Of a DNA stretch of 64,000 nt, positions 4,871 through 26,082 are shown piece after piece. The translations under genes were made by a program, and so were the position numbers. The DNA is taken from the IMG/VR virus record IMGVR_UViG_3300046694_000251. One strand, written 5' to 3'. The notes under the pieces are model-generated. The model saw only the letters and a program-made list of their open reading frames with translations. It was not told where the DNA came from and did no database searches. Position 1 is the first letter of the stretch. Each line of letters starts with the position of its first letter. The stretch is from an uncultured virus (IMG/VR IMGVR_UViG_3300046694_000251). Its lineage: Duplodnaviria; Heunggongvirae; Uroviricota; Caudoviricetes.

Positions 4871-5335
4871 ATGACGCTTAATACCCAGGCCCACGAGGCC
4901 GTCGAGATCACCCTGGACGAGGCGAAGACGCTGCTGGCCCGTGCGGTCGAGGAGCGTGGCGCCGACTACACGTACAAGATGCTCACGATCGAGTTGTCTC
5001 CGGGCCGCCGCGAGTCGCTGTGCGCGTACTTCGACCCGGACACGAAGGTGCCATCGTGCATCGTCGGCCAGGTGCTGGCCTACAAGGGCGTCTCGTTCGA
5101 CGCGATGGCGGTCGAGGACGTCAACGTCTACGCCTCGGCGGGCGCGCTGATCGACACCAACTTCATCAAGGCCAACAACGAGACGCGGGCGCTTCTGGAG
5201 GCCGTGCAGTCCGAGCAGGATTCGGGAATGCCGTGGGGCCAGGCCGTCGAGGAGGCCCTGGCGACGTACGAAGGCAACGCGGAGGACTACGAGGCGGCGG
5301 GCCGCGACGACCCGTCCGAGGCGTACTGGTTCTGA
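4871..5335 (+). CDS. hypothetical phage protein
   Basis: Codon usage, coupled to next gene. Confidence 0.7.
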   Translation: MTLNTQAHEAVEITLDEAKTLLARAVEERGADYTYKMLTIELSPGRRESLCAYFDPDTKVPSCIVGQVLAYKGVSFDAMAVEDVNVYASAGALIDTNFIKANNETRALLEAVQSEQDSGMPWGQAVEEALATYEGNAEDYEAAGRDDPSEAYWF

Positions 5336-5988
5336 TGGGGACGCCGAACACTCTGCTGCGCGGGGTCGTGGGCTCGACAGCCTTCGGCCTCGCCCGGCCC
5401 GGGTCCGACATCGACAGCCTGGGCATCTTCGTCCGTCCGACGCCGGAGTTCTTCCGTATCGGCGCCCGGAACAGTGACTCGCTGGTCAGGAAGGACCCGG
5501 ACGTCACCCTGCACGAGGTCGGTAAGTACGTCGCCCTCGCGCTGAAGTGCAACCCGACGATCATGGACCTGATGTACCTGGAGGAATACACGCACCAGTC
5601 CTGGGAGGGGGAGTGGCTGGTCGGCATCCGCGAGGACTTCCTCTCCGAGCCCTACGTGCGCTCCGCTTACGGCGGCTACGCCATGGGACAGATCAAGCGG
5701 ATCAAGCAGGAGCTGGCCAACGACGGCCGCCAGAGCCGCGTCGCGAAGCACGCCAGACACTGCTTCCGGCTCCTGCGGCAGGGCCAGCAACTGCTGGAGT
5801 ACGGCACGCTCACCGTCCGCGTGCCGGACCCGGAGTTCTACTGGGCGTTCGACGAGATGTCGGCCGACCAGATCGAGGCGGAGTTCTGGAAGGCGTTCGA
5901 CGTCTTCAACGACCGTGTCGGCATCCTTCCGGCGCAGCCGCGTACGGACCGGCTCCAGGACTTCATCAACTACGTAAGGAAGATCTGA
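5335..5988 (+). CDS. predicted nucleotidyltransferase (Pol-beta superfamily, YcgL/RlaP-like)
   Basis: GS-x-AFGL...SDID motif, KCNPT and KHARHCFRLL motifs. Confidence 0.8.
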   Translation: MGTPNTLLRGVVGSTAFGLARPGSDIDSLGIFVRPTPEFFRIGARNSDSLVRKDPDVTLHEVGKYVALALKCNPTIMDLMYLEEYTHQSWEGEWLVGIREDFLSEPYVRSAYGGYAMGQIKRIKQELANDGRQSRVAKHARHCFRLLRQGQQLLEYGTLTVRVPDPEFYWAFDEMSADQIEAEFWKAFDVFNDRVGILPAQPRTDRLQDFINYVRKI

Positions 5989-6108
5989 GTGAAGTGGCTT
6001 CGAGACGTTCCGGAGGCCGTGTGGATCGCGGCGCTACTGCTGGACGCGGCTGCGGCCGTCTACGTCGGGCACGCGCTGTTGCTGGCATCCGGACACTGAC
6101 CTGACCTG

Positions 6109-6140
6109 CGAAGGCCCCTGCTGCGGCGGGGGTCTTTTGC
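6109..6140 (+). terminator. intrinsic terminator
   Basis: GC hairpin followed by T run. Confidence 0.6.
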
Positions 6141-6202
6141 ATGTCCGCGCAACCCCTCGAAAGTGTGACCCACGCCATATGGGTTCCGTTGAACATCTTC
6201 AC

Positions 6203-6241
6203 GATTACGGCCTTGAGATTACGGCTTCTTCGTTATAGGTT
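6203..6241 (+). promoter_or_regulatory. sigma70-type promoter with tandem reverse operator sites
   Basis: TTGAGA-17bp-TAGGTT; GATTACGG repeated at 6203 and 6217. Confidence 0.7.
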
Positions 6242-6289
6242 TCTCGATGTCGGGGTAACCCGAAGAACCGCAGAGCCGAGGAGCACCGA

Positions 6290-6685
6290 ATGAGCACCGC
6301 CACCACCGACGAGCAGCGCCGCCTCTACATCCGGGAGTTCCTGAACAACCAGGGCCACCACGGCCTCGGCGCGGTGCTCGCGGAGATCAACGACGGTGAC
6401 GACAGCGACGACTACCTCGACTTTGGCGCCACCCTCCAGATCCAGGACTGCTCCCGCAGCGTGACCCTCGACTTCGGCGTCTACGGCCAGACGGTCACCG
6501 AGGAAGACCGCGAACAGCTCCGCAAGGACCTGGAGAACGCCCGCGCGAAGGCCGACCGCCTCAAGGGCGCCGTCTACCTCTTCATCGAGAAGCTGGACGA
6601 GGCCCTGAGCGACGTAGAGACGGACCTCGACAAGCGGGACCGCAAGGCGAAGAAGAAGGCCAAGAAGGCCGCGAAGAAGGGCTGA
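6290..6685 (+). CDS. hypothetical protein with Lys-rich tail
   Basis: AGGAG RBS. Confidence 0.75.
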   Translation: MSTATTDEQRRLYIREFLNNQGHHGLGAVLAEINDGDDSDDYLDFGATLQIQDCSRSVTLDFGVYGQTVTEEDREQLRKDLENARAKADRLKGAVYLFIEKLDEALSDVETDLDKRDRKAKKKAKKAAKKG

Positions 6686-6687
6686 AC

Positions 6688-6915
6688 ATGACCGCGAAGC
6701 AGGACGACCGCCCCCTCATGGGACTCGGCCACCTGGTGATCCCCAACAGCAGCGCCAGCCAGGACTGGCTGAAGCGCCAGGGTGAGAAGCGCCAGGAGGC
6801 CGCCGAGATCGTCGCCCTTGAGGCCAAGAAGTGGTTCGCCATCGACCACCTGCCCGAGGAGTTCTACGAGACCTTCGCCAAGCGCGTGGTCGCCGCCCTC
6901 GACCAGCGTCTCTGA
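6688..6915 (+). CDS. hypothetical protein
   Basis: Operon position, codon usage. Confidence 0.65.
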   Translation: MTAKQDDRPLMGLGHLVIPNSSASQDWLKRQGEKRQEAAEIVALEAKKWFAIDHLPEEFYETFAKRVVAALDQRL

Positions 6916-6937
6916 CCCACCACACACCGGAGGACCC

Positions 6938-7333
6938 ATGACGAACCTCATGAGCAAGATTCTGACCAACGTCTCCACCCTCTCCGTGTGGGACGCGCTG
7001 GCCAACGGGCAGGGCATCGACCCCTGGATCGACCGCGTGCCGGACGAGTTCTACACCTGGGTCCACCAGCAGGTGCACCGCCTGGAGACCGACTTCAGCC
7101 GCGAGTATCACGAGATCCTGGCGGACTACGACTGGATCGTTGCGCGCCTGCGGCGCCCCGAGACGGACGGGAAGAAGCGGCGCAAGGAGTTCGCGCTTCA
7201 GGCCCAGACCACGCCGTATCCGGGCCTTCTGTTCCGCCTCTACGACGGCCACGACATCTCCGCCGACGTCTGGAAGCGCGTCCGGCCGCAGTTCGAGAAG
7301 CCGTACTGGACCCCTTCGGAGGACGCCGCCTGA
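6938..7333 (+). CDS. protein resembling only the C-terminal domain of RnlA-family RNA ligases
   Basis: LTNVS..SVW, RVPDEFY.WV, RKEFAL, LF..YDG..VWKRVRP motifs; next to PNKP; no KxDG motif. Confidence 0.55.
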   Translation: MTNLMSKILTNVSTLSVWDALANGQGIDPWIDRVPDEFYTWVHQQVHRLETDFSREYHEILADYDWIVARLRRPETDGKKRRKEFALQAQTTPYPGLLFRLYDGHDISADVWKRVRPQFEKPYWTPSEDAA

Positions 7334-8508
7334 TGGTGCCCTTCGACTTCGGCGGGTGGTTCGAGCGGGCCGAGCTGGTAGGCGGGGAGGAGATCCTTGC
7401 CCACCCCCGTAAGGACTGCATCGGCCGCCACTGCTGCATACACAACCCCTCCGAGCACCACATGCGCGACTGGCCCCAGCACTTCCGCATGGACCGTGCC
7501 CTGATGGAACGGATCTGCCCCCACGGTGTCGGTCACCCCGACCCGGACGATCTCACTTTCAAGCGGCTGATGGCCGGGACCGAGGAGGTCCTGGACGCCG
7601 TACACGGCTGTGACGGCTGCTGCGACCCGAGGAGACACATGACCACCCTGACCATGACCAAGGGCCTGCCGGGCTCAGGCAAGACGACGTGGGCCCGGGA
7701 GCAGGTGCTCAAGGCCATCCCCGGCTCGGTCGTCGTCGTGTGCAAGGACGACCTGCGGGCGATGCTGCACGCCGACCGCTGGCACGGCAAGAACGAGCGC
7801 CAGGTCGTCAAGGCCCGCGACGCACTGGTGGAGATGTTCCTGCTCCAGGGTGTCTCCGTGATCGTGGCGGACACCAACCTCAACCCGGCCCACGAGGAGC
7901 GGCTGAAGGGCGTGGCGGAGCGGCGGGGAGTGAAGTTCTTCGTCAAGGACTTCACCGACGTACGTCTTAATACCTGCATCTCCCGCGACCTGAAGCGGGA
8001 GAAGAGCGTCGGCGAGAAGGTCATCAGGGACATGCACGCGAAGTACCTGACCCCGGCCCCGGCAGACCCGCCGGAGTACCTCGAAGGCCGCCCGCATGCG
8101 GTCCTGGTGGACCTGGACGGCACGCTGGCCAAGATGGTCGGCCGCAGCCCCTTCGACTGGGACCGCGTGGACGAGGACGATGCCCACCAGGACGTCGTCG
8201 ACCTGGTGAACACCCTGCGGGACGCGGGGGCCGAGGTCATTTTCGTCTCCGGCCGCGACGCACGGGCCTACAAGCGGACCCGGAACTGGCTGGACCGCAA
8301 CGTGGGCCCCTGGACGCGGCTCACGCCGCTGCTGATGCGCTCCGAGTACGACATGCGCAAGGACTCGATCGTGAAGGAGGAGATCTACCGGCAGGAGATC
8401 CTGGGCCGCTACAACGTCTGGCTGGTCCTCGACGACCGCAACCAGGTGGTTGACATGTGGCGCAATCTCGGCTTGCGCGTCCTCCAAGTTGCACCTGGCA
8501 ACTTCTGA
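7333..8508 (+). CDS. polynucleotide kinase/3'-phosphatase (PseT-like), with in-frame upstream Cys/His-rich domain; internal start at 7639
   Basis: P-loop GLPGSGKTT, HAD DLDGT, SGR and DDR motifs. Confidence 0.9.
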   Translation: MVPFDFGGWFERAELVGGEEILAHPRKDCIGRHCCIHNPSEHHMRDWPQHFRMDRALMERICPHGVGHPDPDDLTFKRLMAGTEEVLDAVHGCDGCCDPRRHMTTLTMTKGLPGSGKTTWAREQVLKAIPGSVVVVCKDDLRAMLHADRWHGKNERQVVKARDALVEMFLLQGVSVIVADTNLNPAHEERLKGVAERRGVKFFVKDFTDVRLNTCISRDLKREKSVGEKVIRDMHAKYLTPAPADPPEYLEGRPHAVLVDLDGTLAKMVGRSPFDWDRVDEDDAHQDVVDLVNTLRDAGAEVIFVSGRDARAYKRTRNWLDRNVGPWTRLTPLLMRSEYDMRKDSIVKEEIYRQEILGRYNVWLVLDDRNQVVDMWRNLGLRVLQVAPGNF

Positions 8509-9983: not shown

Positions 9984-10358
9984 ATGGGTGAGCGAGTAAG
10001 CGTCGACAAGTTCTGCGACTTCAAGGTGAAGCGCGGGCGGAAGACCGAGGCGTGCGGCCAGGACGTGCCGAACAACGAGGCCACGGCCATCACGCACGGC
10101 ACCACGAGGTACTTCATGGACCTATGCGACGAGCACAAACAGCTCATGAGCGAGGTCCTGGAGCCGTTCACCTCCATCGCCCACAACACCGAGAAGCGTG
10201 TCGGCACGCAGGTGCTCAAGGCCATCAAGGGCAGGGGCGGCCAGACCTTCACCGCTGCGGATGTGCGTGTGTGGCTGAAGGAGCAGGGCCGGGAGATCTC
10301 CTCGACCGGCCGGATCCCCGTGGACCTCATCCGCGAGTTCGAGGCCGCGCACAAATAG
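9984..10358 (+). CDS. lsr2: Lsr2-like nucleoid-associated protein
   Basis: Y.MDLC..H N-terminal motif; C-terminal VRVWLKEQG..ISSTGRIP..IREFEAAH DNA-binding domain. Confidence 0.8.
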   Translation: MGERVSVDKFCDFKVKRGRKTEACGQDVPNNEATAITHGTTRYFMDLCDEHKQLMSEVLEPFTSIAHNTEKRVGTQVLKAIKGRGGQTFTAADVRVWLKEQGREISSTGRIPVDLIREFEAAHK

Positions 10359-10693: not shown

Positions 10694-10769
10694 CCCTCAT
10701 GACAAGCTAGTTGCTAAATGGGGTTGACATCACCCAACCCTGATAACGTAATGTGTAGATCATCAACTT

Positions 10770-10843
10770 CTGGACGTAGCGCAGCCCGGTAGCGCTCCTG
10801 ATTTGGGTTCAGGGGGTCGCAGGTTCGAATCCTGCCGTCCAGA
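10770..10843 (+). tRNA. tRNA-Pro(TGG)
   Basis: Cloverleaf, anticodon loop TTTGGGT, GGTTCGAATCC T-arm. Confidence 0.92.
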
Positions 10844-10848
10844 CTCAA

Positions 10849-10921
10849 GGCCCTTTGGCAGAGACAGTTAATGCGCCCGCCTGAAAAGCGGGAGATCTTG
10901 GTGCGATTCCAAGGGGGGCCA
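10849..10921 (+). tRNA. tRNA-Phe(GAA), non-canonical T-loop
   Basis: Stem CCCGC/GCGGG with loop CTGAAAA; T-loop TGCGATT. Confidence 0.8.
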
Positions 10922-10930
10922 CTTTGTCCA

Positions 10931-11085
10931 GACGCCGAGCCCTGTTCCTGGACAAAAACTGCAATCAACCCTGAACAGGGGCGGGAGACCGAAACGCTTT
11001 ACTGGGGCGAATCCGCAGAATCTTTGTGGTAGGGAGCAGCACTTATCCCGAGCCCGTCACCTAATTTCGCAGGCGTGCGGAGTGC
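10931..11085 (+). ncRNA. c-di-AMP (ydaO/yuaA)-like riboswitch
   Basis: Ordered blocks CGCCGAG, GCGGGAGACC, TGGGGCGAATC, GTAGGG, CCCGAGCCCGTCACCTAA, GCAGGCGT directly upstream of a cell-wall hydrolase. Confidence 0.8.
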
Positions 11086-11089
11086 AACC

Positions 11090-11572
11090 ATGATCAAGAA
11101 GATCGTAGGAATTCTGACTGCCGTAATTCTGACGCTTTCCCCCATCGCGGTATCCGGCACGGCCTGGGCGAGCACAGGAGGCGGTACCACGTCCACCGCC
11201 CCAGCGCCCGCCTCAGTGTCGGGCAACAAGATCGTCAGGCAGGGCGCCAAGTACATCGGATACAGGTACGTGTGGGGAGGTGCCTCCCCGAGCCGTGGGT
11301 TCGACTGCTCCGGCTTCACCAACTACACGTTCAAGCGGCTGGGGAAGTCCATACCCCGGGTGGCCAGCGACCAGTACCGGCACAGCAAGCACGTCAGAAC
11401 GCCGCGAGCGGGCGACCTGGTCTTCGTCCACGACTCCAGCGGCTACGTCTACCACGTCGGCATCTACGTCAATTCCCACACCTGGCTGGAAAGCGAGCGA
11501 CCTGGTAAGGGTGTCAACTACTACCACCCCTGGACGAAGCGCGTTTACTACGGGCGCTACTACGTGAAGTAG
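11090..11572 (+). CDS. secreted NlpC/P60 (C40) cell-wall peptidase
   Basis: Signal peptide; YVWGG, FDCSG, PGDLVF-like and HVGIY motifs. Confidence 0.92.
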   Translation: MIKKIVGILTAVILTLSPIAVSGTAWASTGGGTTSTAPAPASVSGNKIVRQGAKYIGYRYVWGGASPSRGFDCSGFTNYTFKRLGKSIPRVASDQYRHSKHVRTPRAGDLVFVHDSSGYVYHVGIYVNSHTWLESERPGKGVNYYHPWTKRVYYGRYYVK

Positions 11573-11622
11573 GATTCACCAGTAAGAAAGGCCGGAGGGA
11601 AGATAGGGTCCTTCCGGCCCCC

Positions 11623-11704
11623 GGCCGAGTGGTGTAATGGCAGCCACGCCATCCTCAAAAGATGGTGCCCTGTGGGCGTGCGGGTTCGACCCCCGCCTCG
11701 GCTA
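11623..11704 (+). tRNA. tRNA-Leu(CAA)
   Basis: Anticodon loop CTCAAAA, long variable arm, GGTTCGAC T-arm. Confidence 0.9.
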
Positions 11705-11709
11705 CGCAA

Positions 11710-11782
11710 TCCTCCATAGCTCAATTGGCAGAGCAGCGGACTGTTAATCCGCGAGTTCCTGGTTCGAGTCCAGGTGGGGGAG
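11710..11782 (+). tRNA. tRNA-Asn(GTT)
   Basis: Cloverleaf, loop CTGTTAA, GGTTCGAGTCC. Confidence 0.93.
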
Positions 11783-11820
11783 CCCCCGTAAGCCCCGGTG
11801 ACCTAATTGGTTACCGGGGC

Positions 11821-12615: not shown

Positions 12616-12750
12616 ATTACTGGTTCTGAACCAGTAATCAGGATAGTCTGCGCAGCTCACAGGTCCGAGTGGGCCGGTTGACCCCAGAGTGAAGACGCTT
12701 CACTCCTGGAGTGAGTGTTGACATCGAAGCCGTAATCCCTATAACGTAAT
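12616..12750. promoter_or_regulatory. divergent promoter region with palindromic and tandem operators
   Basis: Palindrome ATTACTGGTTC-T-GAACCAGTAAT; TTGACA-18bp-TAACGT with GAAGCCGTAA in the spacer. Confidence 0.7.
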
Positions 12751-15871: not shown

Positions 15872-16075
15872 TCAGAGGTTGAACTCACCGGCCTTGACGC
15901 TCTGGACGAATGTCGACCAGCCAGCCTTGGTGAAGCTGTGCGTACCGACCTCGCGGTCCTTGGTGTCCCGTACCTTGGCGGTGCCTTCGGGGGTCGCAGC
16001 GAACTCGACGCAGCTCCCCTCGCCGTTGCTGTAGCTGGAGGTAAACCAGTTCAGCTCGCCGCTAACGTCGTTCAT
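15872..16075 (-). CDS. DUF397 protein
   Basis: WFTSSYS...CVEFA...VRDTK..W..FV..VK. Confidence 0.92.
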   Translation of the reverse strand: MNDVSGELNWFTSSYSNGEGSCVEFAATPEGTAKVRDTKDREVGTHSFTKAGWSTFVQSVKAGEFNL

Positions 16076-16971
16076 TTTCCGAACCTCTCTGCTGTTTCTT
16101 TCAACCAAGCGACGGAGCTATCCGGCCGCGTAGAAGCCGCCACGAGCTGTTGGAAGATCTCTTCGTGACGACTTACATCTGAGGTCTTGTCCAGATACAC
16201 GGCGCTCGTCAACTGCTCGGAGTAGACGAGCGAGCCGGGGGTGTCCTCGAACGACAAGATCGAGAACGAGTACCCCATGCTCGCGTGTGCACCGGCCTCG
16301 AAGGGCAGGATCTGGACAGTGACATTCGGGTTGTTCTCTACCACATCAGCAAGGTGACTCAACTGCTCGCGCATCACGTCGCGCGTCGCCACGACTCGGT
16401 GAATCACGGCCTCGTTGAGCACCACCCACACCTTGGGAGGGCTGTCCCGCGTAAGGATCTCCTTGCGCTGGAGCCGTGCACTTGCACGGCGGTCTACCTC
16501 ATCCGCCGACGGCGCCTGAGACATTGAGCGGATTACCGACTGCGCGTACCGCTCCGTCTGGAGCAGACCGTGGACCAGCTCGGTCTCGTAGATGAGCATC
16601 TGAGACGCGTCCGCTTCGAAGCCCAGGTAGGGCTTGAACCACTCCGGCAAGGCATCGCCGTAGGAGTGCCACCAACCGTTCTGCCGACTCCGGCGGACCA
16701 GGTCGACGAACTGCCGGATCTCCTGGGAATCCTGAACTCCGTACTCGTTCAGCAGGAGTTTGGCATCCTTGTCGGACAGAGGGGATTTGCCTCCCTCGAT
16801 CCGGCTGACCTTGGACTCGGACCATCCGAGCATCTTGGCTACCTGCGCCGCTGTGAGTCTCTTGGACTCGCGCAAGTTGCGCAGCTCTTGGCCGAGCCGT
16901 CGCCTCAGCACGGTCGGACTGGCTGCCAACGTGACCTCCCAGGTTGCGGGTACTGCTGCACAGTCTGCCAC
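16072..16971 (-). CDS. XRE-family HTH regulator with DUF5753 domain (WhiJ/Scr1-like)
   Basis: RRRLGQELRNLRE HTH, GLLQTERYA, MREQL.HL, VQILPF. Confidence 0.92.
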   Translation of the reverse strand: MADCAAVPATWEVTLAASPTVLRRRLGQELRNLRESKRLTAAQVAKMLGWSESKVSRIEGGKSPLSDKDAKLLLNEYGVQDSQEIRQFVDLVRRSRQNGWWHSYGDALPEWFKPYLGFEADASQMLIYETELVHGLLQTERYAQSVIRSMSQAPSADEVDRRASARLQRKEILTRDSPPKVWVVLNEAVIHRVVATRDVMREQLSHLADVVENNPNVTVQILPFEAGAHASMGYSFSILSFEDTPGSLVYSEQLTSAVYLDKTSDVSRHEEIFQQLVAASTRPDSSVAWLKETAERFGK

Positions 16972-22527: not shown

Positions 22528-24612
22528 TCAGGCGGCCAATCGCCATTTTTCCAAGTTGATGACGTACGTGAACGAACCCCTGGATGAACGCGACGCCGGG
22601 TGCGGAACCTGGCTCTTCGACTGCCCTGTAGTGAACTCCACCAGGCGAGGGTCGACGTTCCCCTTGACCTGCATGGGCGGCAGCGGCGGCCTACGCGGCG
22701 GAGCGGGCTCCAGAAGGGGCTCGACGATGCTCTCCCAGTCCCCGCCCTTCCAGGCCCGCCAGCGAGCCCTCAGCGCCTCCTTCGGGGGGAAGTGCTCCGG
22801 CATCTCAGACCACGGGCAGCCCGTACGCGCCTTGTAGACCAGGCCCTCCACTAGCGCCCGCAGATCGTGGCTCTTCTTCGTGGAGCGGAACTTGATCCGA
22901 GGACGGATCTCCTCCCACAGCTCATCGGTCATCTCGACCGGCTGCACACCGCGCTGCTCGAACCACTGCTCCAGGTCGGAGTCGGGCCCGAAGCGACCGT
23001 CCAGCGGAACCGGTCCCGTCAGTGACACCTGAATATCCAGCAGGTCCATAATCTCGGACTTCTGCCGGTCGTTGATGTTCTCCAGGTTAAAGCTGGCGAT
23101 CTCGACCAGCCGCTGGAAATCCTCCGCGCGAGCAGCGGCCTCCTCGGCCTCCATCAGCATCGACTCTGCGTCTTCCAGCATCGTCTGCTTGGTGTTGATC
23201 TCCTCGTTCAGCTTTCCCACGGCCGAATTAATGGCCAGTGCGTCCACCCCAGCCTTCGCGAGGTTCACCAGGGTCGTCGTGGTCAGCTCACGCAGGCCTG
23301 CGATTTCCCGGGTCAGTTCCTCAATTCGCACCTCGTACGTCTTGCGGTGATCCGGCGCGGTGGTGACCCAGTCCTTGGCGATCTCGCGCAGCTTGTCCTT
23401 GTCGCCCAGGAAGTTCTTCAGGCTTCCCCAGACGACTTCTTCGAGCGCCAGGGCGTCGATGACGGAGTCACCGCACTTGTTGCCCGAGCAGCGGTAGGTG
23501 CGGCGGTCTTCGGCCTTTACGTAGACGCCGGTGTAGTGGGCGCCGCATTCGCCGATGACGCGGGTGCTGAGGGGGTGGTACTTGTACGGGCCGGAGAGGT
23601 TCCAGCCGTTTCGCTTGAGGGCGTGGCGGACGGAGATGAGCTGGTCGAGTTCGAAGACCATCGGGGTGTCGATGATCATCATCGGACCGTGCTTGGGGGA
23701 GCCGTCGGGGTTCATCTTGGTCTTGCGCTTGCGGCGCTTGTTGACGACCTCGTCGGTGTTTCGGTAGACGACGAATCCGTCGAGCGCTGTGTTGAAGAAC
23801 TTGTGGCGCAGGTTGCTGCCGGTCCATTCGACGCCCTTGCGGGTGAGTCGGCCAATGACGTTGAGCATGTGCGCGGCGCGGTCGACGGTATAGCCGCCCT
23901 CGACGATCATCAGGGCGGCGATTTCGAGGGTGCGGGTCTCCTCGGGGTGGAGGGCCAGCTTGGAGTCGCGCTTGCCCTGGTTCTCGATGTAGTAGCCGTA
24001 CGGCGGGGGGCCGCCGGTCCAGCCTCCGTTGGCGGCCTTCATGTTGAGGCCGTTCTGGGTGCGCTCCAGGATGGTGCGCCACTCCATCTCAGAGAAGGAG
24101 GCGAGTTGCTGGAGGGCGGTGACGCCGTGGGTCGTGGTGGTGTCGATCTCCTGGGTGACGGAGATGATCGAGCAGCCAGCGTCTTCGAGGGTCCAGACCC
24201 AGTGCCAGAAGGCGCGGCCGGTGCGTCCGATGCGGTCGAACTTGTGGACCGCGACGACGTCGATCAGCTTGGCGTGGACGTCGCGCTCCAGGCGCATCAT
24301 CTCGGGGCGGTCCTGCTTGGCGCCGGACTCACCGGCGTCCTCGTAGACGTCCGCGATCTCCCAGACGATGTTGGTGCCGTTGCGCTCCTCCATCGTGTTC
24401 TTGAGGTCGATGTTGTCCTGGATGCCCTTGAGCTGGACGTCGAGGCCGTAGCCGACGATCTGGTCTTTGGTGGAGACGCGGAGGTATGCGCCGACTCGCT
24501 TGACAATGCGTGCGAGGGAGGCTGCGGACTTGAAAGTGCCGGGGGTTCCGGGGCGGGTGCCGTTGATCTTCTCCGCGCGTGCGCGAGCGCGCTCGGCCGC
24601 TATGCTGGCCAT
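22528..24612 (-). CDS. int: large serine recombinase (integrase) with a DUF4096-like C-terminal extension
   Basis: YLRVST catalytic Ser, DRIGR, GGPPPYGY, Zn ribbon (CG..Y.C..C), coiled coil. Confidence 0.93.
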   Translation of the reverse strand: MASIAAERARARAEKINGTRPGTPGTFKSAASLARIVKRVGAYLRVSTKDQIVGYGLDVQLKGIQDNIDLKNTMEERNGTNIVWEIADVYEDAGESGAKQDRPEMMRLERDVHAKLIDVVAVHKFDRIGRTGRAFWHWVWTLEDAGCSIISVTQEIDTTTTHGVTALQQLASFSEMEWRTILERTQNGLNMKAANGGWTGGPPPYGYYIENQGKRDSKLALHPEETRTLEIAALMIVEGGYTVDRAAHMLNVIGRLTRKGVEWTGSNLRHKFFNTALDGFVVYRNTDEVVNKRRKRKTKMNPDGSPKHGPMMIIDTPMVFELDQLISVRHALKRNGWNLSGPYKYHPLSTRVIGECGAHYTGVYVKAEDRRTYRCSGNKCGDSVIDALALEEVVWGSLKNFLGDKDKLREIAKDWVTTAPDHRKTYEVRIEELTREIAGLRELTTTTLVNLAKAGVDALAINSAVGKLNEEINTKQTMLEDAESMLMEAEEAAARAEDFQRLVEIASFNLENINDRQKSEIMDLLDIQVSLTGPVPLDGRFGPDSDLEQWFEQRGVQPVEMTDELWEEIRPRIKFRSTKKSHDLRALVEGLVYKARTGCPWSEMPEHFPPKEALRARWRAWKGGDWESIVEPLLEPAPPRRPPLPPMQVKGNVDPRLVEFTTGQSKSQVPHPASRSSRGSFTYVINLEKWRLAA

Positions 24613-25008: not shown

Positions 25009-26082
25009 GTGACCACCGCACTTCGCAGCGCCATCGACGAGTACCTGAGCAACCGGCGCGCGGCCAAGGCCGACAACACGATGCGCGCCGACGACAACCT
25101 GCTGCCCCGCTTCGCCGACCACGTCGGTAACCCCGACTTCTCGACCCTCACCCCTGAGCAGGTCCGGGACTTCTTCTACGGCGACGGCGGCCTGATGGAC
25201 ATCCACGTCACCCGCATCAAGGGCCAGCAGCTCCGGGCGGCCGTTGGGCCGAGCACGCACAACCACTACCGCAAGCGGCTGAGTCTGTTCTTCGGCTACT
25301 CCCACGCCCGGGGGCTCGCTCCGCGCAACGACTACCTGTGCCTGGTCGACCCTTTGCCGGAGCTGAAGAAGCAGCGCATGCAGCCCTCGCCGGGGATCCT
25401 GCTTCAGCTCCTGGACCAGTCCGAGTGCGCCATGCACCGTGCCTACCTTGCGACGGCCGTGAACACCGCGTGCCGCGCGAGCGAGCTGGTGAACCTGCGC
25501 GTCGGCGACGTCGACTTCGCGGCCTCCGAGGTCTTCGTGACCGTGATCAAGACCAAGGAGGAGGATGAGATGCCGCTGACCGCCGACCTGGAGCGGGAGC
25601 TGCGCATCTGGTTCGAGGAGTACGCGGCTTTGCTCGGGCGCCCGCTGCGGCCGGATGACTACCTGTTCCCGGCCCGCTCCGGTAACCAGATCAAGACGCA
25701 CTACTTCGATGAGGCGCTGGGCCGCCGGGTGTACGAGCGGACCCCGTTCGTCTACCACGCCGACCGGCCGGTGGAGCGTACGGAGAAGATCGTCAAGGGC
25801 GCCTTGGGCAAGCTGGGCCTGCCGACCCGCTACGAGGGCACGCACACGGTGCGCCGCGCCGTGGCTCGTGCGTACTTCGACCAGCTCGCCGAGGATGTCG
25901 GATACGACGCGGCGCTGCGTACGGTCTCCGCGCTGCTGCACCACTCGTCCATGACGACCACGGAGCGTTACCTGGGGCTGTCGAGTGAGAAGCGGCGCCG
26001 GGACGAGACGCTGAAGGGGCGCCCGTTCCTCACCTCGATGGTCTCCCAGCAGAACGTCGTGCAGCTCCGCCCGGCACGATGA
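25009..26082 (+). CDS. tyrosine recombinase
   Basis: CRASEL (R), K, HTVRR (HxxR), LLHH and TTERY (Y) catalytic residues. Confidence 0.9.
   Translation: MTTALRSAIDEYLSNRRAAKADNTMRADDNLLPRFADHVGNPDFSTLTPEQVRDFFYGDGGLMDIHVTRIKGQQLRAAVGPSTHNHYRKRLSLFFGYSHARGLAPRNDYLCLVDPLPELKKQRMQPSPGILLQLLDQSECAMHRAYLATAVNTACRASELVNLRVGDVDFAASEVFVTVIKTKEEDEMPLTADLERELRIWFEEYAALLGRPLRPDDYLFPARSGNQIKTHYFDEALGRRVYERTPFVYHADRPVERTEKIVKGALGKLGLPTRYEGTHTVRRAVARAYFDQLAEDVGYDAALRTVSALLHHSSMTTTERYLGLSSEKRRRDETLKGRPFLTSMVSQQNVVQLRPAR

Follow-up and report, generated by a model that had tools for sequence, protein, structure and literature searches.

Does a phage of Streptomyces carry an intact sensor for c-di-AMP, a second messenger of its host, in front of a gene for a wall-degrading enzyme, or has the sensor altered or lost its ligand specificity? 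The question is raised by positions 10931–11572 of a 64,000-nucleotide stretch of viral DNA (IMG/VR record IMGVR_UViG_3300046694_000251; 'the window', to which all coordinates refer unless stated), where a sequence-only reading had recognized a ydaO/yuaA-like leader with deviations from consensus before an NlpC/P60 peptidase gene. Riboswitches are rare in phages (PMC5473149), and the available text of that survey (McCown 2017) names only those for c-di-GMP (class I) and glutamine.

The phage and its relatives

Judging from its gene content and relatives, the window is part of a clade of temperate Streptomyces myophages of about 105–110 kb and not a host fragment. A PHROGs scan of 41 proteins returned terminase, portal, major head, sheath, tube, baseplate and replication proteins together with two integrases, and the capsid protein is 72–74% identical to those of the Streptomyces phages BRock, LuckySocke and pSt2308. 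The window's terminase recurs at 88–93% in all five contigs checked that bear the module of riboswitch and peptidase gene; among the module-bearing contigs checked, three are complete with terminal repeats and one (G006) is a complete provirus. A syntenic prophage in Streptomyces sp. NPDC002088 (74–86% nucleotide identity) carries the module as well. Virion genes, an integrase and integrated relatives mark a temperate tailed phage, and with tRNA genes on both sides of the module, the phage setting inside a tRNA cluster described in the sequence-only reading is borne out. Elsewhere in the window, a serine recombinase with a C-terminal DUF4096 (IS4/5-type) domain (22528–24612, − strand) lies beside a tyrosine integrase (25009–26082, + strand), and an XRE/DUF5753 regulator is followed by a DUF397 gene (15872–16971, − strand), a common actinobacterial pair that is kept at 86% in the NPDC002088 prophage.

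The riboswitch follows the clade closely. A search with the peptidase found 21 viral loci, 11 of them 69–98% identical to the query; in a scan of 14 of the 21 with the Rfam model RF00379, all 11 close loci scored above the cut-off (58.6–71.9 bits) and all three distant ones were negative. A family-wide sequence pattern gave 24 viral matches, 23 of which are a riboswitch plus NlpC/P60 unit between tRNA genes, the remaining one being a Firmicutes-type riboswitch that is probably host flank; a relaxed pattern added two host-type riboswitches, probably also in host flanks, and a phage-specific pattern found 30 viral stretches, made up of the 23 known members and seven in which the remainder of the aptamer is lacking. 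Because an aptamer that has diverged escapes an exact pattern, these figures set a minimum for phage riboswitches at large. RF00379 matched none of BRock, pSt2308 and three related viral contigs (0/5), nor the nearest record, a 21% fragment (G001). Among cultured phages, blastn with the aptamer gave no match and a host-type aptamer gave only nine short chance matches inside coding regions; among plasmids there was one match, at 73%. In the hosts the class is nearly universal, the pattern being present in 297 of 301 Streptomyces genomes.

An intact member of the c-di-AMP riboswitch class

The cmscan search against Rfam placed a match to RF00379 at 10950–11089, with a score of 59.2 bits (gathering score 38 bits; E = 3.5e-11 for the whole window), which confirms the assignment to ydaO/yuaA. 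All eight blocks named beforehand are there in the expected order: ACGCCGAG (10932–39), GCGGGAGACC (10981–90), TGGGGCGAATC (about 11003–13), GTAGGG (about 11028–33), CACTT (11040–44), CCCGAGCCCGTCACCTAA (11047–64), GCAGGCGT (11069–76) and GGAGTG (11079–84), followed by the ATG at 11090. The cmscan alignment is good over its 3′ two thirds and mis-registered on its 5′ side because P2 has a long (25-nt) loop. We rejected the way it places P1 and P4; ACGCC/GGCGT, a pairing already suggested in the sequence-only reading, is the true P1: it fits better, and its fifth pair is kept across 18 clade sequences as C-G (11), U-G (4) or U-A (3).

With this register, the aptamer core spans 10932–11076 (+ strand) and comprises P1 (10932–36/11072–76), P2 (10940–47/10973–80), P3 (10981–86/11065–70), P5 (11005–08/11052–55), P6 (11013–16/11026–29) and P7 (11032–35/11046–49), so that both three-way junctions, P1-P2-P3 and P5-P6-P7, are present. 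Over 18 distinct clade sequences, 99.0% of 820 cells are paired (97–100% per helix) and none of 500 shuffles did as well, though at a mean column identity of 91% across the element such shuffle controls overstate independence. Five core pairs show double changes, located in P1, P2 and P7. The unpaired junction motifs GAAT, TA and GTCA-CTAA are invariant in the clade, and compared with the Rfam consensus and natural variants, the scope of our check on ligand-contact nucleotides, J5/6 (GAAU), J6/7 (UA), J5/3 (GUCAGCUAA) and J3/4 (GA.C) agree with the consensus, the sole exceptions being G>C at 11060 and C>G at 10991, which compensate each other. J1/2 varies among clade sequences (GAG, GAA, TAG, TAA, CAA), a variation also found in host riboswitches. 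The free folding energy of the element is not unusual (z = −0.56) and is uninformative as evidence.

By family model, helices and junctions, the element is an intact member of RF00379 in a phage, for which binding of c-di-AMP is predicted. It shares with the family P1–P3, P5–P7, the junction motifs and the L7 pseudoknot with the 3′ tail, and differs in being phage-borne with a 5′ end that abuts a tRNA, in an extra helix (P0), in an A-U closing pair of P3, and in a flipped long-range pair.

The deviations from consensus are compensated

Changes from the consensus had led the sequence-only reading to consider altered or lost ligand specificity. The A of GGGAGACC ends the 5′ strand of P3, opposite U11065; the A10986-U11065 pair, G-C in the consensus, occurs in 18 of 18 distinct clade sequences. 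Likewise, GGGGCGAAT is accompanied by GAGCCC, a swap of C-G for U-A in P5 that also appears in the printed sequence of the crystallized T. tengcongensis construct (PMC5393176). The variant GTCACCTAA is the rare one: it has four matches in 185,579 species genomes, one of them a Streptomyces prophage, against 571 matches (two of them from G136) in 297 of 301 Streptomyces genomes with any base allowed at that position, and C was absent from the position equivalent to 11060 among the 150 Streptomyces matches listed, where the position was visible.

This change, too, has a partner. G>C at 11060 goes with C>G at 10991, which restores a Watson–Crick pair, G10991-C11060 (+ strand), which all 18 clade sequences have. 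Among 143 de-duplicated riboswitches from outside phages, 135 were parsed (G747, locus L262, included) and 8 skipped; the pair 11060:10991 is Watson–Crick in 128 of the 135, with G:C in 100, A:T in 22 and C:G in 6, the others being G:A (1), A:A (3), A:C (2) and C:C (1). None of our claims depends on G136 or G747. The C variants and the A variants (30 loci for A) were gathered with patterns that leave out the partner position. The partner is G in six of seven C variants and in none of the 128 others (Fisher 9e-10, uncorrected for kinship, some C variants being related Bacillota). Position 4 of J3/4 was considered as the partner of 11060 and rejected, as this neighbouring position lacks covariation. 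The deviation at 11060, read from these co-occurring bases, is a flipped long-range base pair. The pair is missing from the Rfam structure; it may already be drawn in crystal structures, in which the P3–P5 region is a non-canonical internal junction rather than the consensus P4 hairpin (10.1101/038679) and the P3–P5 linker forms binding site 1 (PMC11963983).

Because both deviations, in GGGAGACC and GTCACCTAA, are compensated, lost or altered specificity finds no support. A variant of altered specificity would pair an uncompensated contact change with a shifted gene association; here the changes are compensated and the gene class is the usual one, as it is for those A:U and C:G bacterial cases whose gene was read, which precede typical wall-hydrolase genes. 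The sole C:C host case, L050 of Streptomyces sp. NPDC051243, precedes an NlpC/P60 gene without the catalytic Cys, and aptamer and peptidase have likely decayed together there.

An additional helix shared with host riboswitches

The analysis also brought out features beyond the sequence-only reading: a helix P0, the tRNA-abutting 5′ end, a 3′ hairpin and LysM-bearing relatives. P0 (10923–10956, + strand) is formed by the nine bases after tRNA-Phe (10923–31), which are complementary to the first nine of the P2 loop (10948–56), and is missing from the Rfam model. In the 18 clade sequences, 98.8% of its cells are paired. L113, a divergent metagenomic locus, supplies both of the double changes; there are also two wobble changes and two unpaired cells. 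One RNA-library contig variant has an outer P0 pair broken and a double change in P2.

We had entertained the idea that P0 is phage-specific and rejected it, since the same helix occurs in host riboswitches. The host subclass ACGCC-NAR-TCCTGCC has 166 matches in 57 of 61 Streptomyces genomes, and in all 30 of its loci fetched (L219–L248) P0 is formed from different sequence, with a mean of −17.1 kcal/mol against −11.5 ± 0.7 for permuted partners (0/300 permutations as low). Other host subclasses have short P2 loops and no P0; by eye, and unquantified, P0 was seen in one of 26 other actinomycete rows. P0 and P2 together have the topology of an H-type pseudoknot, the loop crossing P0 is 16 nt long in the window and measures 17–29 nt in every one of the 30 hosts, and P0 adjoins P1 and P2 with linkers of 0–1 nt in most of the host matches listed. 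The most likely arrangement is that P0 and P2 form together, P0 adding a pseudoknot that steadies the first junction. Pseudoknot-free folding gives P0 a probability of about 0.99 and P1, P2 and P3 values near 0, from a program that is unable to form P0 and P2 together. For the host family, these results add two structural points, the long-range pair missing from the Rfam structure and the leader-loop helix P0; the latter is common to a main Streptomyces subclass, and constructs trimmed at P1 would lose it.

The downstream peptidase

The open reading frame at 11090–11572 (+ strand) encodes a 160-aa NlpC/P60 (C40) peptidase, as the sequence-only reading had it (PF00877, 76.7 bits against a threshold of 23, E = 1.6e-21). 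Enzymes of this family use a triad of a catalytic Cys, a His and a third polar residue; Cys73 and His122 are invariant in 12 aligned proteins, Glu134 occupies the position where host homologues carry His, and the catalytic DCSG is present in 40 of 40 clade proteins. The N-terminus looks, by eye, like a signal peptide, and secretion and peptidoglycan hydrolysis are predicted. An NlpC/P60 or LysM-NlpC/P60 protein lies downstream of the riboswitch in 25 of 25 loci; the longer form occurs in 14 of these, and LysM was confirmed in the two tested. The protein clade comprises 40 clusters at 59–99% identity, several from Streptomyces assemblies, after which there is a gap to about 50%. Peptidase identity falls to 56–79%, with LysM gained or lost, while the element keeps 91%. 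The phage also encodes a separate virion NlpC/P60-SLT protein, and for this reason we do not regard the 11090–11572 product as the tail enzyme.

The best chromosomal homologue is a 157-aa protein (45% identity in G003, 38% in G002) that in both hosts checked stands behind an RF00379 match of the P0 subclass. That the phage captured its peptidase from this host gene was considered and rejected: in a tree of 51 domains, with a weak backbone and bootstrap values not settled, the phage proteins form a clade (100/99) that lies outside the host 157-aa C40 clade. The aptamer itself is, by its anatomy, of the Streptomyces type.

A pseudoknot over the ribosome binding site

The sequence-only reading had paired CACTT with GAGTG over the ribosome binding site (RBS), and the clade upholds this. 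L7 GCACT(T) at 11039–44 can pair with (GG)AGTGC at 11079–85 (pseudoknot 11039–11085, + strand); its five pairs, between GCACT and AGTGC (11081–85), are formed in 98.9% of cells, and being nearly invariant they have no covariation support of their own within the clade. The pseudoknot overlaps GGAG, 7 nt before the ATG, and a strict scan of the + strand called no U-tract terminator after the aptamer. The same arrangement was shown to repress translation in T. pseudethanolicus (PMC11963983), and the C. glutamicum nlpC riboswitch acts as a translational OFF switch for which a pseudoknot over the GGAG RBS was proposed (PMC9960051), whereas premature transcription termination, not translational control, was reported for Streptomyces rpfA (PMC10117811). 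A translational c-di-AMP OFF switch is the best reading here because the conserved pseudoknot covers the RBS. Counting against it, folding models bury the RBS even when ligand is absent, in a local hairpin (11064–11083) formed by the 3′ strand of P3 with the RBS, so that an open ON state is a prediction; judged by eye, most relatives retain this hairpin, and in L023, L024 and L113 it is weaker.

A possible messenger between tRNAs

Upstream of the module lie tRNA-Pro(TGG) (10770–10844) and tRNA-Phe(GAA) (10849–10922), the latter without an encoded CCA and with its 3′ end abutting the riboswitch; downstream lie tRNA-Leu(CAA) (11623–11705) and tRNA-Asn(GTT) (11710–11784), all on the + strand. A gap of 0 between the upstream tRNA, either Phe or Pro, and P0 recurs in 23 of 25 loci, the other two being truncated. 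Just before tRNA-Leu stands a GC-rich stem-loop of 11 bp without a U-tract (11590–11619, + strand; z = −2.93), and a stem-loop of varying sequence holds this place in 25 of 25 loci. Before the tRNA-Pro to tRNA-Asn unit we found TTGACA followed by TAACGT/TAATGT (10724–10754, + strand), a putative promoter whose motif has two matches in the window against 0.01 expected and whose TTGAC stands ahead of the unit in all clade loci but two truncated ones (23 of 25); a strict sigma-70 scan called no promoter on the + strand, at 10724–10754 or elsewhere, and none is visible between the stop codon and tRNA-Leu. The second TTGACA..TAACGT copy (12718–12747) precedes an exonuclease-like gene.

RNase Z and RNase P carry out tRNA processing. 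That the aptamer abuts a tRNA suggests release by tRNA processing, and we infer an mRNA that would be cut from a tRNA operon with both ends protected. Contigs from RNA libraries span the tRNA-Phe and/or riboswitch stretch of relatives in four of four runs from two studies, and at 88% likeness they cover hardly any of the coding region; such contigs cannot show strand, ends or RNA source, and we did not use them as support.

Other features of the neighbourhood are an Lsr2-like protein (9984–10358) upstream of the tRNA unit, and nucleotidyltransferase and polynucleotide kinase genes (5335–8508) near the tRNA cluster, possibly for tRNA repair. In L113 (reverse strand, contig positions about 216–320), a third element resembling a tRNA, uncalled by ARAGORN, is situated between tRNA-Phe and the riboswitch; it has an acceptor-type stem of 7 bp, and the riboswitch again abuts its 3′ end.

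Proposed mechanism and alternatives

The element has every helix and junction motif of the family and is under constraint to pair, and across the clade its position before the same gene is fixed. We put at roughly 70% the probability that the element is an intact c-di-AMP riboswitch serving as a translational OFF switch for the predicted secreted peptidoglycan endopeptidase of a temperate Streptomyces myophage; as far as family membership, conservation and gene context go, the part of the sequence-only reading that tied wall remodelling to a host second messenger thus stands, and its alternative of changed specificity does not. One transcript would start at the promoter-like motif before tRNA-Pro, and tRNA maturation would cut it after tRNA-Phe and before tRNA-Leu, freeing an mRNA that begins with P0 and ends in the stem-loop. 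With c-di-AMP at its usual level or above, the aptamer would be locked by two ligand molecules and the L7 pseudoknot would close the RBS, so that no enzyme is made; when c-di-AMP falls, the RBS would open and the hydrolase would be exported in step with the host's riboswitch-controlled wall hydrolases, which are probably ON when c-di-AMP is low (PMC11481543).

The likeliest purpose is that the prophage or infecting phage contributes wall-loosening activity only while the host itself is signalling wall remodelling, the switch serving as a safety catch. Joint action with the host regulon in the lysogen, during germination and outgrowth, has in our estimate a little under an even chance; wall weakening in lytic growth, with the switch as the safety catch, is a serious contender at somewhat longer odds, and some other purpose is doubtful. 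More speculatively, tRNA processing may free a ligand-sensing mRNA braced by P0/P2, with a fall in c-di-AMP as the life-cycle cue that times export of the hydrolase and perhaps the supply of downstream tRNAs. DisA is inhibited by branched DNA, as known from Bacillus work, and within this tentative scheme the cue could come either when the lysogen germinates and grows out or when branched phage DNA inhibits DisA in lytic replication.

Several other explanations compete with a ligand-gated RBS. P0 might act as an anti-aptamer: by folding before P1/P2 and shutting them out, it would keep the RNA in an ON or kinetically trapped state until the ligand displaces it. P0 is indeed transcribed first and dominates pseudoknot-free folding, and the minimum free energy with P0 enforced in place of P1/P2 lies within 4 kcal/mol of the aptamer-constrained fold. 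Yet that folding comes from a program barred from combining P0 with P2, P0 has no nucleotide in common with P1 or P2, and both the 0–1-nt linkers in most host matches listed and the 17–29-nt crossing loop in 30 of 30 hosts are what an H-type pseudoknot with P2 requires, so that we consider this unlikely. Rather less probable still is that c-di-AMP is bound but acts on transcription or RNA stability, gating the downstream tRNA-Leu and tRNA-Asn (tRNA-His in relatives). This has the precedent of rpfA (PMC10117811; PMC9960051), the P1/P2/P0 anatomy of the host subclass that includes rpfA-like genes, and the want of a visible promoter between stop codon and tRNA-Leu in its favour; a terminator is missing after the aptamer, however, and the pseudoknot overlaps the RBS exactly. 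Both mechanisms can coexist and need not exclude each other.

We give little credence to a variant with a different ligand. A C at 11060 is indeed very seldom seen (4 in 185,579 genomes against 571 matches in 301 Streptomyces genomes), the flipped pair falls within the P3–P5 linker that makes up binding site 1 (PMC11963983), and J1/2 varies; but the change is a base-pair flip of a kind that bacteria also make, as A:U (22 cases) and C:G (6), before typical wall-hydrolase genes where the gene was read, J1/2 varies in the same way in host riboswitches, and the regulated gene class is unchanged. A decayed passenger, or a purely structural RNA that stabilizes the mRNA without sensing a ligand, seems just as remote: the 59 bits are below the best host matches (about 100 bits), and the uncompensated C:C of L050 before a peptidase without its catalytic Cys shows that decay occurs, but the low score stems from the mis-registered long P2 loop, relatives reach 71.9 bits, the junction motifs GAAT, TA and GTCA-CTAA are invariant, and the element holds 91% column identity against 56–79% in a peptidase that gains and loses LysM.

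Relation to known systems

The sensor class and the regulated gene class are already well known, which limits the surprise; what our analysis adds is a setting, a phage, from which the class had not been reported in the literature searched, together with compensated variants and the unmodelled helix P0. The closest parallel is C. glutamicum RSnlpC (Reich et al., 2023; PMC9960051), where a c-di-AMP riboswitch likewise precedes an NlpC/P60 peptidase, without a canonical terminator, with a proposed pseudoknot over the GGAG RBS and as an OFF switch. RSnlpC is chromosomal, follows a protein-regulated promoter and was tested experimentally, whereas the phage unit belongs to a tRNA operon of a temperate phage and is described from sequence. 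Streptomyces itself has ydaO-controlled wall hydrolases, namely rpfA and five or six others (PMC10117811, PMC8079986, PMC11481543), which match the phage unit in host genus and gene class, and one host subclass also in its ACGCC P1, 7–8-bp P2 and P0. In contrast to the phage, the long-range pair remains C-G in hosts; the peptidase of the phage makes up a separate clade outside the host 157-aa C40 clade (on a weak backbone), and the reported transcription termination at rpfA (PMC10117811) differs from the translational switch we propose.

Other phage riboswitches, c-di-GMP-I in C. difficile prophages and glutamine in cyanophages and Melnitz (PMC5473149, PMC11477304, PMC9004378), are similar in that a host-type aptamer reads a host metabolite or second messenger; they differ in ligand and in output (antitoxin RNA, tmRNA/psbA), and c-di-AMP does not figure in a phage in the available text of these three papers. 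Within the accessible portions of the literature, our search turned up neither a c-di-AMP riboswitch encoded by a phage nor any reference to P0. With such a sensor kept throughout their clade, these temperate phages would be responding to the signal that Streptomyces uses for wall and turgor, which offers a testable handle on the role of c-di-AMP in lysogeny and infection, for which Streptomyces sp. NPDC002088 is a sequenced lysogen. BRock and its relatives (Borockvirus) resemble the window as myoviruses of about 110 kb with a stand-alone NlpC/P60 gene and a capsid protein 72–74% identical; they differ in having no RF00379 match and in an NlpC/P60 gene that neighbours the endolysin and falls, in the tree, with the host 157-aa family. 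The metagenome contigs L114, L115 and L117 hold c-di-AMP-type aptamers with the C:G flip, behind which there seem to stand a hairpin and a U-rich tract as well as atypical genes or none that is clear.
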